Positions 9,010 to 25,244 of a DNA stretch of 32,895 nucleotides are shown here, in pieces (position 1 is the first letter of the stretch; every line of letters begins with the position of its first letter). This stretch comes from a bacterium (GTDB lineage: Bacteria > Patescibacteriota > Minisyncoccia > UBA6257 > JACOXY01). The DNA lies in contig JAUXUB010000031.1 of NCBI GenBank assembly GCA_030680955.1, positions 1 through 32,895 of the forward strand. Direction: 5' to 3'. The position numbers and the translations under genes are program-made. A model generated the notes under the pieces. That model saw nothing but the letters and a program-made list of their open reading frames with translations, searched no databases and had not been told where the DNA came from.

Positions 9010-9221
9010 CTAAAGCAAACTCTTAAATTCTTCGTCAGTAAGTCCAGCGTCACGAATAATACCTTTCAGCGTGTAAGGGTTTAGTCTTTTATGACGAGGA
9101 ATAATAATCTTCATTCTGCCATTCTTTAGTCCATAATGCTTTCCGCCGCTTTTTGAAATCAAAAACCGACCTTAGTAAAAGCCTTGATAGCGCGCTCAGA
9201 AGAAACGTCTGTAAAAAGCAT
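9010..9221 (-). pseudogene. hicA: HicA-family toxin, frameshifted
   Basis: MLFTDVSSERAIKAFTKVGF / ISKSGGKHYGLKNGRMKIIIPRHKRLNPYTLKGIIRDAGLTDEEFKSLL*; one base is missing at the T run 9161-9165 (212 bp in total). Confidence 0.85.
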
Positions 9222-9232
9222 GTGATAAGAAG

Positions 9233-9433
9233 TTAAGTAACCGAGACCTCTACTTCCCGCATTATTGATCCCTTAAGCTCTTCTTTTCCCATTTCAAGAT
9301 ATGTAAGAATAGCATCCTTGATATTTTCTAAAGCTCCTTTTTCTGTTGATCCTTCACTATGACAACCCGGAAGTGCTGGGACGTGAGCGTCATACCCATA
9401 TTTGCTCTTATGAACAATAACAGTGTATTTCAT
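9233..9433 (-). CDS. hicB: Short HicB-family antitoxin
   Basis: YDAHVPALPGCHSEGST...ALENIKDAI; no DNA-binding domain. Confidence 0.9.
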   Translation of the reverse strand: MKYTVIVHKSKYGYDAHVPALPGCHSEGSTEKGALENIKDAILTYLEMGKEELKGSIMREVEVSVT

Positions 9434-9467
9434 ATATTTAGAAATACTAGCATATTTTGATTAAATT

Positions 9468-10334
9468 TCAAGCTACAATTTTACTTAATTCTTCGTAAGC
9501 TCCTTTTGGATTTTTACTATTAAATATATATGCACCCGCTACAAAGAGATTAGCACCCGCTTCCTTAGCCAGTTTTGCAGTTTCTAAATTTATTCCACCA
9601 TCAACCTCAATAATCGAATCTTGAAACCGATTGCGTAATTTTTTTATTTTCTCAAAAATTCTCTGATCCATCTTTTGTCCAGATGGACCAGGTGTCACTC
9701 CTAAAATTAAAAAACCATCAAAATGAAGTGCCTCGCTGTCAGCAGACAGTAATTTTTCTTTTCGAGGCACGGAACCCCGCACCAAAGCCCCACCAGACGC
9801 CATGTTCATATCCATAAAATCTTTTTTTTCTAATACCACTCCATCACTAAATTGATTCAAGGGACTTTTAGTGCGCGGGTCAGTATATGCAAACAACCTA
9901 TCAACTTCTGTTTCAGGTTTGATAGCCAAAAAACATTCTGCATTATATTTTTTGCATTTTTCTAAAATTAAAACTGAATCCTGCATTACTTCTAAATGAA
10001 CAATTATCCTTTTTGCGCCAGCTCTTAGCCACGCGTCAATATATACTTCGGGATTTTCTATCATCAAATGAACCTCAATCTTGATTCTTGATTCATTATT
10101 CATGATACTTGTGAGTTCGTCTGGATTATTCCAAGAAATGTGGGGTGTGAATTTGCCGTCAGAGACATCAATATGAACCCATTTATCCGCCGTAGCTTTA
10201 GCGAAGGAGGACGCGCCCGTCCCGCCTTCATCGGGATTAGGGTTTTCCTGCTTAAAAGCTGATGCGAAAGCGATGCGTTTTTTAATACAAGAAAAATCTT
10301 CACAGTTAATTGAGGGAATAACAATATTTTGCAT
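9468..10334 (-). CDS. rpe: Ribulose-phosphate 3-epimerase with multiple in-frame insertions
   Basis: IPSI, HIDVSDG, EVHLM, GVTPGPSGQ, EVDGGI; 288 aa from ATG 10334, with TGATAAGAT 7 nt upstream. Confidence 0.9.
   Translation of the reverse strand: MQNIVIPSINCEDFSCIKKRIAFASAFKQENPNPDEGGTGASSFAKATADKWVHIDVSDGKFTPHISWNNPDELTSIMNNESRIKIEVHLMIENPEVYIDAWLRAGAKRIIVHLEVMQDSVLILEKCKKYNAECFLAIKPETEVDRLFAYTDPRTKSPLNQFSDGVVLEKKDFMDMNMASGGALVRGSVPRKEKLLSADSEALHFDGFLILGVTPGPSGQKMDQRIFEKIKKLRNRFQDSIIEVDGGINLETAKLAKEAGANLFVAGAYIFNSKNPKGAYEELSKIVA
9728..9880. mobile_element. Two abutting inverted-repeat elements inserted in-frame in rpe (153 bp)
   Basis: GTGCCTCG...CGAGGCAC (9728-9770) and ACCCCGCACCAAAG...CTTTTAGTGCGCGGGT (9774-9880). 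Confidence 0.7.
10186..10236. repeat. Two short palindromic elements in-frame in rpe
   Basis: TCCGCCGTAGCTTTAGCGAAGGAGGA (10186-10211) and TCCCG-CCTTCAT-CGGGA (10220-10236); together encode PDEGGTGASSFAKATAD. Confidence 0.7.
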
Positions 10335-10351
10335 AATATTAATCTTATCAC

Positions 10352-10379
10352 AAAAACTCCCACATAAAAGCGGGAGTTT
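10352..10379 (-). terminator. Probable intrinsic terminator after the FN3 gene
   Basis: AAACTCCCGC-TTTTAT-GTGGGAGTTTTT on the minus strand. Confidence 0.6.
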
Positions 10380-10400
10380 CAAGATGCGATTTTTTGCGAA

Positions 10401-11627
10401 TTAATACCCAAAATCACTCACAAACGAATAAACGTTCCTTGCGGTGCTATCCATCACTTTTAAGACAAGCGCATAAGTGGTCGATGCATAATTAGGTATA
10501 AATGTTGGGCCAGGAACCGTTGTAGAGGAAGTGCCTCCAATCAAAGTACCAGAAGCATTACTTAATTGTGGACAAGGTACGGTGCTGGATGGATTTGAAA
10601 TATAACAACTATTCCACGACCAATTAAATGAGCTCAAATCACCATCCACGTCTTTCGCCCAAGCGCCACCATGAGTATGTACAACACCAATAGGAATATA
10701 ATGCTGCGAACCGGCGTTAGCAGTCGGGGAACTCTTAACTATTGGGGAAGGCGTAGGATATGGAGTTGGGGTTGGGGTAGCCACAGTATAAGTAAATTCT
10801 ACTTTTGTGGCGTAGCCTGCTGTAACAGAAAAAACCTTACTACAACTACCATTCACACAAGTTACGGCAGTCGAGCTTCCAACTGTGCAATCCGACTGCG
10901 CTCCGCTTAAAAACTGACAAGACCCTGCTTTTTTAGTATAACCGCTTAAATCAGTAACATAAGCAGTATGAGTGCCTGGAGTTTTACTCTGAAACCATGC
11001 TGGATTATATGAATTGCTACCAGCTTGGTTAGCTAGCGCATCAACGTTTGCTGAAGTTGTGACTGTTCCCGAAAGTCCAGACCTTAAAATTTCTACTTCA
11101 CCAAAAGTTGGTGTTGGAGTTGGAGATACAATTGGTGTTGAAGAAGGTGTCGGCGTTACACACGAAAGTATTCCGCAAGAAAGACAGGAACCACCAACAT
11201 AACTACAATTAACAGGTGGGGTGGCACAAGAAACACAAGATGCTGGTGTCGTCGCATTTGCAATATTAGAAAAGACTGAGAGTTTGTTTCCGCTAACAGT
11301 TTTTGCCTTATAATAATATGTTGTGGAAATACTTAGGCCTTGATCCGAATAACTTGTGCTATTTGCTGGGGTAGTCGCTATCAATTTAAATCCAATACTT
11401 TTATCTAGGCTCCGATAAATGTTATATCCAGTTTCGTTAGAATTAGTATCATACCAAGTAAGATTAATTTGCGTTGTAGAGATCGGAGTAGCACTTAAGA
11501 CTGTAGGCTCATAAAGTTTTGCTATTGTAGTAAGCACGCTATTTCCCCCTTGTCCCATTAATAATACACTTCCCAAACCAATCAATACTACCACACCTAC
11601 AAGTAAATATATTTTTGACATAGGCAT
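10401..11627 (-). CDS. Membrane-anchored or secreted surface protein with fibronectin type III domain, Cys-rich motif, Pro/Thr linkers and C-terminal PKD-like domain
   Basis: N-terminal hydrophobic helix; INLTW...NETGYNIYRS...YSDQGL...YYYK; TPTP linkers; PTANAG...DVDGD...W...LKVMD. Confidence 0.8.
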   Translation of the reverse strand: MPMSKIYLLVGVVVLIGLGSVLLMGQGGNSVLTTIAKLYEPTVLSATPISTTQINLTWYDTNSNETGYNIYRSLDKSIGFKLIATTPANSTSYSDQGLSISTTYYYKAKTVSGNKLSVFSNIANATTPASCVSCATPPVNCSYVGGSCLSCGILSCVTPTPSSTPIVSPTPTPTFGEVEILRSGLSGTVTTSANVDALANQAGSNSYNPAWFQSKTPGTHTAYVTDLSGYTKKAGSCQFLSGAQSDCTVGSSTAVTCVNGSCSKVFSVTAGYATKVEFTYTVATPTPTPYPTPSPIVKSSPTANAGSQHYIPIGVVHTHGGAWAKDVDGDLSSFNWSWNSCYISNPSSTVPCPQLSNASGTLIGGTSSTTVPGPTFIPNYASTTYALVLKVMDSTARNVYSFVSDFGY

Positions 11628-11700: not shown

Positions 11701-11843
11701 ACCCTGCACCAAGCATCAAATATAATTTAGTCTGGTTTGTATGTTTGCAACACGGAACTCGCCTCAATTCGTACAATAGAACTTATTGAATTTCGGCTTT
11801 AGTTTAAATATTGCTATTACCTGTACTTAATGCTGATGCGGGG
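11701..11843. mobile_element. MITE-like element with CCC(T/C)GCA(C/T)CA ends
   Basis: ACCCTGCACCAAGCAT...ATGCTGATGCGGGG imperfect terminal inverted repeats; same end family as 9774-9880. Confidence 0.55.
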
Positions 11844-13659: not shown

Positions 13660-13768
13660 AGATATTAAGAAATTTACAATACTCAATTTATGCCGATAAA
13701 GTCGGGACAATTTACATTTAAATTTCAATGTTTCACTTCAAGATATTTAAAATTGAGAAATTGGATTA

Positions 13769-20757: not shown

Positions 20758-20850
20758 GGTTCGCCATAGCTTTCTTAACCTTCGAAGCCTTGGCCTCCTT
20801 CGTCGAAGTGACTACGAAGGCCGAGCGCGAAGGAGGTAGCGAGGGCAACC
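20758..20850. repeat. Three nested copies of the CCTTCG/CGAAGGAGG palindromic element
   Basis: Outer 20758-20773 plus 20837-20850, middle 20779-20793 plus 20826-20836, inner 20792-20822. Confidence 0.6.
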
Positions 20851-24449: not shown

Positions 24450-24480
24450 CAATATTCGGACTTGCGAAGTCCGAATATTG
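24450..24480. repeat. REP palindrome CAATATTCGGACTT-GCG-AAGTCCGAATATTG (left of transposase)
   Basis: 14-bp perfect arms; identical to 25214-25244. Confidence 0.93.
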
Positions 24481-24498
24481 TGATAACTTATTTATATT

Positions 24499-25212
24499 AT
24501 GAGACCACAAATTGTACCAGGAAATATTTATCATATTTTAAATAGGGGTGTGGATAAACGTAAAATATTTCTAGATGATATGGATTATCTTAGATTTATT
24601 CACGATCTTTTTGAGTTTAATGATGAAAATCCCTCGCTAAGTAATAGCCACCTTTTCAAAGCAATAAAAACATTCGAACCCCAATATTCGGACTTGCGAA
24701 GTCCGAATATTAGTAGGGAACCAAGAAAACTATTAGTGGAAATTTTAGTTTTTTGTTTAATGCCTAATCATTATCATCTTATGGTCAGACCTTTAACTGA
24801 GAAGGGATTGGTAAAATTCATTAAAAAACTAAATATTGGTTACGCCAATTACTTTAATCAAAAATATGAAAGGAGTGGAGCATTATTCCAAGGACGATAT
24901 AAATCAATTGCAATTACAAACGATGCGCATTTTATACATCTTCCATACTATATCCATATGAATCCATTAGATCTATATATGCCAGAGTGGCGCAAGAGGG
25001 AACTTAAAGACTACAATAATGCATTTGCTTTTTTAGAAAAATATAGGTGGAGTAGTTTTCAGGATTATATTGGAAAAAAGAATTTCCCATCAATTACACA
25101 GAGAGATTTCTTATTAAAATTCTTTAATGGACCAGAAGAACATAAAAAATCAATACTTAAGTGGTTAAAAGATTTTGATCCTGAAGAAACAAGGGCCTTG
25201 ACACTCGAATAG
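24499..25212 (+). CDS. REP-associated tyrosine transposase (RAYT, HUH Y1 family)
   Basis: YHILNRG...IF, CLMPNHYHL (HUH), GALFQGRYK, YIHMNP (catalytic Tyr), YRWSS; flanked by palindromes. Confidence 0.92.
   Translation: MRPQIVPGNIYHILNRGVDKRKIFLDDMDYLRFIHDLFEFNDENPSLSNSHLFKAIKTFEPQYSDLRSPNISREPRKLLVEILVFCLMPNHYHLMVRPLTEKGLVKFIKKLNIGYANYFNQKYERSGALFQGRYKSIAITNDAHFIHLPYYIHMNPLDLYMPEWRKRELKDYNNAFAFLEKYRWSSFQDYIGKKNFPSITQRDFLLKFFNGPEEHKKSILKWLKDFDPEETRALTLE
24683..24711. repeat. REP palindrome inside the transposase ORF (in frame)
   Basis: AATATTCGGACTTGCGAAGTCCGAATATT, read as QYSDLRSPNI. Confidence 0.93.
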
Positions 25213-25213
25213 G

Positions 25214-25244
25214 CAATATTCGGACTTGCGAAGTCCGAATATTG
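25214..25244. repeat. REP palindrome (right of transposase)
   Basis: Identical 31-mer starting 1 nt after the stop codon. Confidence 0.93.

Follow-up and report, generated by a model that had tools for sequence, protein, structure and literature searches.

The rpe gene and its extra length

The window analyzed here comprises positions 1 to 32,895 of contig JAUXUB010000031.1 (GenBank assembly GCA_030680955.1) from a tiny groundwater bacterium of the Patescibacteriota (Minisyncoccia; UBA6257; JACOXY01), and it carries on its minus strand, at 9468..10334, a gene for ribulose-phosphate 3-epimerase, rpe, with repeat DNA inside its reading frame. The 288-residue product, which begins MQNIVIPSINC, was recognized from the open reading frame (ORF) and its translation, a match to PF00834 (E 1.6e-34; 119.5 bits, the cut-off being 21.1), similarity to solved Rpe chains (E 9e-25) and an AF2 model. 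The PF00834 match is split into two stretches, and the alignment with 1tqx likewise falls into two blocks, Rpe residues 49-152 and 208-281 against residues 31-135 and 142-215, leaving ~52 Rpe residues without a counterpart. Residues H54, D56, H89 and D245, which we take to be the metal-binding and catalytic His/Asp/His/Asp positions of Rpe, align with the H-x-D, HLM and DGG motifs of 1tqx, 4nu7 and 1h1y, and D56, H89 and D245 are invariant in the 17 sequences aligned; the catalytic motifs described as intact by a first-pass annotation of this DNA are indeed so. A protein search returned this gene as the sole rpe (one match) of the genome (G000; 1.07 Mb in 80 contigs, estimated 96% complete) and found rpe in 37 of 41 related genomes, that is, G000 and 40 relatives. 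The names that homologous proteins bear assign the organism to Patescibacteria/Parcubacteria.

Relative to 16 orthologs extracted from relatives' genomes (208-229 residues), the encoded Rpe is 59-80 residues longer, which bears out the earlier contrast between 288 residues and a typical ~220. This excess consists of two blocks. The larger, residues 153-204 (9723-9878), lies between the YTD and FDGF motifs and is absent from all 16 relatives; the smaller, ~17 residues encoded within 10190-10262, occupies an N-terminal site that is empty in 15 of the 16, the remaining Rpe (G005) having a shorter and unrelated extension. In DNA alignment with the rpe of a same-genus genome (G001), clean gaps of 153 and 51 nt were obtained, and the two halves of rpe match that genome 3 nt apart. 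The net gain due to the large block is 153 nt against the same-genus ortholog and 156 nt (52 residues) against the closest protein, P0004. Although the first-pass annotation had placed the extra length correctly, it divided it among five separate elements, and this division did not hold: the gap pattern, together with a heptamer stretch that adds no net length, leaves two extra blocks. The inverted repeats noted at 9728-9770 and 9774-9880 are present but are modules of one 156-nt element, and the palindromes at 10186-10211 and 10220-10236 do fall within the small block without being elements in their own right. Region 9439-10500 is identical, with 0 differences, in a separate assembly of the same run and the insert was found again in two other assemblies; thus, it is not an assembly error.

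The small block is a region with 51 extra nt (17 residues) on the minus strand, within QENPNPDEGGTGASSFAKAT at 10190..10262, absent from G001 and P0004. Its G+C content is 58% compared with 36% in the gene core, and its boundaries are ambiguous, as an ungapped alignment of ASSFAKATADKW with the relative's ASSFKNDSSDNW is also possible. Inside it lies a REP-like (repetitive extragenic palindromic) imperfect palindrome, CCGCCGTAGCTTTAGCGAAGGAGG (10187..10210), the pattern of which recurs at position 3162 of contig C29, to which there is a 26-nt match at 92%, and as a variant at position 7502 of C67. The stretch 10178-10212 matches at least seven other contigs among those listed from three groundwater runs of one study. 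An in-frame insert in uvrB, a different double hairpin, was considered as kin of this block and rejected, the shared words being at most 7 nt long; the uvrB insert is unrelated to either rpe block.

The heptamer array at 10079..10111 (TCTTGAT in 4.7 imperfect copies, coding for SIMNNESRIKI) is real but weak, with a TRF period of 7 and a score of 38, and it shows no gap relative to G001 and, hence, no added length, contrary to what had been supposed. The heptamer stretch matches an apparently non-coding segment of C58 (1085-1114) at 29 of 30 positions, with further matches in other metagenome contigs, and several Rpe orthologs have similar peptides at this place, such as RIQNSELKIN and KIENSKLKIE. 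The neighbors of rpe are all on the minus strand: a gene for a fibronectin-type-III protein upstream and, directly downstream, HicA-like (toxin) and HicB-like (antitoxin) genes at 9010-9162 and 9233-9433.

A composite inverted-repeat element and its family

The large block is a composite inverted-repeat element of 156 nt at 9724..9879 (boundaries good to about 2 nt), which lies on the plus strand and is, therefore, antisense to rpe; residues 153-204 (52 residues, PRTKSP...SEALH) are its translation. Module 1 (9724..9774, plus strand) consists of TGAAG, an outer stem, a terminator-like hairpin, a T-run and GGAA. The outer stem is a perfect 8-bp inverted repeat (9728-9735/9763-9770) enclosing the hairpin, at 9735-9750 on the plus strand, and its T-run. 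Module 2 (9775..9879, plus strand) is ~104 nt long and is bounded by the terminal inverted repeats CCCCGCACCAAAG and CTTTTAGTGCGCGGG, with arms at 9775-9787 and 9864-9879 that pair when either strand is folded (z -2.6 and -4.0). Because the element is antisense to rpe, its own TGA and its hairpin with T-run have no action on the gene. Of the six frames, the one that rpe uses is alone in running through the 156 nt without a stop. Inteins have characteristic splice-junction residues; the insert starts with Pro and ends with Leu-His followed by Phe, ends that do not fit this rule, and at 52 residues it is too short, and we rejected this identity. An intron was likewise rejected, as Rfam at the gathering threshold gave two tRNAs in the window and no intron family.

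Three intergenic copies of the composite element were found in the genome, at C14 12661-12862, C24 11600-11761 and C79 10422-10585, and these share the two-module plan: TGAAG, a stem around a G+C hairpin and T-run, GRAA, then the arms CCCGCACYAA...TTRGTGCGYGG around ~80 A+T-rich bases. Module 2 of the rpe copy aligns with 102-103 nt in each of them. All three start on a stop codon, the TGA that ends the upstream ORF supplying their first three bases; these ORFs code for ThrRS, an HtrA-like protease and a membrane protein, and the copies share the orientation of these upstream genes. Stops occur in 17 of their 18 frames, and their interiors have 22-27% G+C compared with 36% in the rpe copy. The thrS-miaA spacer of the same-genus genome is 45 nt long with a plain terminator, and its ThrRS has an equally long C-terminus.

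When the three intergenic copies were combined into a profile, it matched 9753-9879 (E 2.3e-5), its only further match with E<1 in 1.07 Mb. Across the four copies, 12 of 29 base pairs change on both sides, compared with 5.6 ± 1.6 in shuffles (reached in 0 of 500) and at most 5 in slid controls, figures that come from four sequences only and from a structure derived from those same four; 9 of the 13 pairs of helices 1-2, in module 1, change in this way. A covariance model of the four copies detected a strong copy in another genus (E 1e-14) and weak matches in two genomes. Paired arms of the form CCCCGCACCAA lie 100-156 nt apart on many contigs of the genome, and the count of 13 such pairs, with one mismatch allowed in the 9-mer, against 0 in each of 10 shuffles indicates that the terminal arms are non-random. 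BLAST against the organism's own genome found no second copy of the whole insert and kinship is visible by profile only, because the interiors have diverged. Rfam named no family for this repeat or for the sister family described below, either in the window at the gathering threshold or at six element loci searched at E<=1. The rpe insert thus belongs to a composite inverted-repeat family.

A second family has the same terminal arms. The intergenic relative that the first-pass annotation had placed at 11701-11843 is one of its members, at 11702..11843 on the plus strand, with shared arms CCCYGCACCAA and a conserved inner hairpin (profile E 1.9e-28, this copy being in the training set), whereas the kinship proposed for 20758-20850 and 13692-13708 with the rpe inserts was not borne out by any blastn-short match at E<=1. 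Members are ~140 nt long, with arms CCCCGCACCAA...TTGGTGCGGGG and an inner hairpin of the form CACGGAAnTCGCC-stem-GGCTT. The alignment holds 14 copies, 10 of them from G000, and the profile finds 14 loci in G000, all intergenic, among them C13 9100-9255, C25 17017-17158, C52 3639-3778 and C66 8606-8746; by a strict pattern the family occurs in three of the 41 related genomes, all of one family. The inner stem varies in a compensated way, and the sister family could be a structured RNA instead of, or besides, a mobile element. Its profile gives no match to the rpe insert, and none to an arm pair inside a 494-residue ORF on C6, which we dismissed as a chance pair.

Other repeats were observed in the same genome. 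Two tRNA genes, at C13 8855-8964 and C49 12826-12960, are bracketed by similar inverted repeats, CCACCCACCAAAT...ATTTGGTGGGTGG and CCCCGCACCAATT...AATTTGGTGTCGGG. Very abundant G+C-rich 11-mers (CTCGCAATGAC, 117 copies; CTCGCAAAGAC, 110; CGAAGCAATCC, 85) indicate that the 1.07-Mb genome holds additional high-copy repeat families.

Position in the barrel and distribution among orthologs

The AF2 model, made with a 17-sequence alignment, has a mean pLDDT of 82, with 88-98 in the barrel blocks and values below 50 at residues 41-48, 156-190 and 192-196, which are the insert segments. The top Foldseek matches of the model are all Rpe crystal structures (E ~1e-19, TM 0.85-0.89 normalized to the target). 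In the model the inserts fall between helix 14-24 and strand 51-59 and between helix 144-150 and strand 207-211. The alpha-to-beta loops of TIM barrels face away from the catalytic side, and both inserts are predicted to be disordered loops of this kind, opposite the active site, a position that would explain why the enzyme tolerates them. With the sole open frame being the one used, 52 codons kept in three orthologs and disordered loops in the model, the sequences favor inserts that are translated and tolerated, not spliced; tolerance by loops was one of the two possibilities raised in the first-pass annotation, the other being removal at the RNA level.

To follow the large block across relatives, the 120 best homologs were listed, 8 were aligned, and 40 were used for a tree of Rpe cores from which the insert columns had been removed. 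Among the 120 homologs listed, two, P0002 (279 residues) and P0003 (292 residues), have a 52-residue block at the same site as the window Rpe (P0001), which accounts for their length, and all three carriers keep exactly 52 codons without a stop. What the three have in common, DPRTKSP, GGALVRGSxPR and SxALH, are translations of the arms and outer stem. Arm-encoded residues are identical among carriers at 20-21 of 22 positions and interior residues at 10-12 of 30 (33-40%), with overall identities of 56-62% for the insert and 58-68% for the core. Unlike the intergenic copies, the carrier inserts can be aligned with each other in the interior, which argues for one origin of all three. Conservation of the extra segment as protein in distant orthologs, which would have spoken against palindromic DNA as its source, was found in part: two orthologs carry the segment, but the residues conserved are those encoded by the palindromic arms.

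The distribution of the block is patchy. The three carriers fall into one clade of nine (support 99/96), and each is paired with an insert-free protein, P0001 with P0004 (100/98) and P0003 in a clade with P0007 and P0009 (99/94); forcing the carriers into a single clade costs 105 log-likelihood units (p 2e-10 in the approximately unbiased, AU, test). The closest relatives, P0004 (77% core identity) and P0007 (85%), are insert-free. At the site, the insert-free members of the clade are exactly as long as the outgroup, which implies several scar-free losses or an exchange of alleles. In all three sister pairs the carrier has FDG just past the site and the insert-free sister has FNG, a sequence pattern that hints at short exchanged tracts or at a target requirement.

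A metagenome locus, the sole one returned by a scan for insert-bearing rpe, proved to be a glutamine amidotransferase that shares LHFDGVLI by chance, and a contig with 285 letters instead of 426 between two short conserved rpe blocks was read as the shorter rpe of another organism and not as an excised form. Otherwise, the contigs compared from three DNA runs, all of a single study, yielded only a source-like contig and short repeat matches. Relatives' Rpe proteins have other inserts in other loops (P0003, P0007, P0008, P0002, P0010 and P0016): P0003 has an unrelated sequence in the same N-terminal loop, P0007 has 21 residues after DAW with GVGVPTKASG, resembling the GVGAPTEASG of the G000 uvrB insert peptide, and P0008 has 25 residues after SDGK. 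The Rpe of this clade has thus been struck by several families.

Origin of the insert and its implications

We consider it probable that a mobile repeat inserted once into rpe, in antisense orientation, and that it is translated, the enzyme tolerating it in a loop of the back face. Dispersed repeat DNA would have struck rpe at two places, with both pieces translated in a still functional enzyme. The larger piece would be a small non-autonomous mobile element of ~155-200 nt that, when intergenic, docks directly where the upstream gene has its stop codon and takes the orientation of that gene. The antisense copy in rpe would have kept one frame open, read as a 52-residue disordered loop from helix 5 to strand 6, and the 17-residue block would sit between helix 1 and strand 2. 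A single insertion in an ancestor, or in one allele, of a small Rpe clade may then have been followed by precise loss on several occasions or by transfer between alleles.

Several observations weigh against this account. In folding, the palindromes of the small block do not surpass shuffled sequence (z -1.7 and -1.0), and the N-terminal block has weak, short relatives only. Mobility is read from distribution, since there are four composite copies, no defined target-site duplication and no autonomous element found with these arms; translation of the inserts, retained enzyme activity and precise loss are likewise presumed. With the NCBIfam equivalog TIGR01163, Rpe scores 132.1 and so stays below the cut-off of 212.6, a shortfall probably due to the splitting of the match by the insert; the match to NF004076, also split in two by the insert, is again below threshold (140.9 against 165). 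Finally, near-invariant arm-encoded residues are unlike a decaying passenger and point to constraint on DNA or RNA or on the peptide. Tolerance does not explain this near-invariance, which suggests either a continuing importance of the hairpins as nucleic acid or co-option of the peptide.

The first of these two possibilities leads to a bolder proposal, to which we give limited credence, in which the composite element is a living, site-choosing cassette that docks on stop codons with its own TGA and terminator and leaves without a scar, and the arms and stems of the rpe copy are under nucleic-acid selection. On these terms, selection on nucleic acid would account for the arm-encoded near-invariance, and reversibility for the recurrence, beside insert-bearing alleles, of insert-free ones that match the ancestral state in length (85% and 77% core identity); a housekeeping enzyme would then hold a reversible, translated mobile element.

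Co-option of the peptide appears improbable to us. The 52-residue segment would have become a working part of the enzyme, perhaps a loop for docking or regulation; selection on the peptide would maintain it, and the origin from a repeat would be history. Such a role would fit the persistence of the segment in three lineages despite core identities of only 58-68%, and also the near-invariance of its three shared motifs. The conserved residues are, however, exactly those from arms and stems that are also kept in non-coding copies, the closest relatives P0004 and P0007 do without the insert, and the segment is predicted to be disordered. Searches with the 52-residue peptide against 1.84 billion representatives and against word-indexed longer proteins (E<=10) each gave P0001 alone, which also speaks against co-option, although the word-indexed search missed P0002 and P0003 as well and both searches are thus too blunt for a query of this length.

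Removal or skipping of the inserts in the message, either by excision at the inverted-repeat stem or by ribosome bypassing of the kind known for G+C-rich elements of some yeast mitochondria, we regard as highly improbable. The sense-strand fold does join the ends of module 2 (-55.8 kcal/mol, z -4.0), and the inserts stand out by their high G+C content from a gene rich in A+T, yet neither a length that is a multiple of three nor a stop-free frame would be required for removal, both are found in the window gene and likewise in three diverged orthologs, and the window contains no Rfam intron family. That rpe is decaying or inactive and merely accumulates insertions, as two inserts in one gene, the further inserts in the loops of P0003, P0007, P0008 and P0002 and the score below the equivalog cut-off might suggest, is very hard to reconcile with an intact 288-codon frame, invariant catalytic and phosphate-binding motifs, a barrel modeled with confidence and the status of the gene as the sole rpe of a 96%-complete genome and one kept in 37 of 41 related genomes.

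Returning to a mobile repeat tolerated in a loop, we compared the element with known small repeats. It has the features of a MITE, or miniature inverted-repeat transposable element: terminal inverted repeats, a length below ~300 nt and dispersed copies (4 composite and ~14 in the sister family). Comparison of filled and empty sites, in the same-genus rpe and at thrS-miaA, gave no clear direct repeat, the junctions being ambiguous by 1-3 nt, and no parent insertion sequence was found as an arm pair 400-3500 bp apart with 12 of 15 matching extended arms in the 80-contig assembly, from which a copy could be missing as unassembled. As far as excerpts of PMC10969869 and PMC3049150 describe them, the SPRITE elements of Streptococcus pneumoniae and the Correia elements of Neisseria are likewise small MITEs, dispersed, with terminal inverted repeats and a hairpin and T-run after genes, and belong to those MITEs that bring terminators or regulatory signals with them. 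They differ in that here no target-site duplication is defined, the assembly holds no parent insertion sequence that shares the arms, and the copies are very diverged inside, with arms and stems alone kept.

Three Y1 (IS200-like) transposase genes are present in G000, each flanked by its own different palindrome and not by the composite arms; a search of the genome for TnpB (PF07282) gave no match. One of the three lies in the window (Y1_Tnp, IS200-like/RAYT-like, 237 residues, 24499-25212, plus strand), with the palindrome AATATTCGGACTTGCGAAGTCCGAATATT on both flanks (~24450-24480 and 25214-25244) and a third copy, PQYSDLRSPNIS, in frame inside its coding sequence (~24681-24713). Its paralogs on C34 and C15 each have a different cognate palindrome, again on the flanks and at the corresponding place inside the gene. 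The suggestion that several unrelated families occur in frame here agrees with these palindromes, with the composite element and REP-like block of rpe and with the uvrB double hairpin. In excerpts of PMC2817692 and PMC3116915, the REP/REPIN and RAYT systems resemble the present case in combining hairpin repeats with Y1 transposase genes, and precise excision by single-strand Y1 enzymes would fit the scar-free empty sites, which we offer as conjecture. The systems differ, as the Y1 genes here are flanked by other palindromes and the composite arms are not themselves palindromes.

The closest behavioral parallel had been drawn in the first-pass annotation, and repeat DNA in frame in a housekeeping enzyme is indeed what is seen both here and in Rickettsia. 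The Rickettsia palindromic elements (Ogata et al. 2000, 2002, as excerpted from PMC10969869) are ~100-150 nt long, occur between genes and in frame in unrelated housekeeping genes, and are read through as extra peptide compatible with the fold, with 44 coding copies reported for R. conorii. The likeness is one of behavior only: a single family has in-frame (one) and intergenic (three) copies. The phylum is different, Patescibacteria here, and a sequence relation is not expected. The family here is composite, with two modules, a terminator-like hairpin and starts at stop codons; it has one coding copy against the 44 that the excerpt gives for R. conorii, and that copy runs antisense to the polarity of the element itself. 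The discordant same-site distribution sets the present family apart from the Rickettsia elements and the terminator MITEs alike. In the open full-text literature we found no description of such elements in Patescibacteria.

Streamlining is assumed for the ultra-small bacteria of the candidate phyla radiation (CPR), whose genomes are minimal. Here, the only pentose-phosphate epimerase of a CPR genome would tolerate 69 repeat-derived residues. Curated annotation thresholds can fail on insert-bearing genes, as the missed equivalog cut-off illustrates. With filled and empty alleles of one site in close relatives, the system is tractable, and precise excision, as well as selection on a DNA hairpin as opposed to a peptide, could be addressed in it. 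More broadly, differences in protein length within this phylum may regularly stem from repeat elements.

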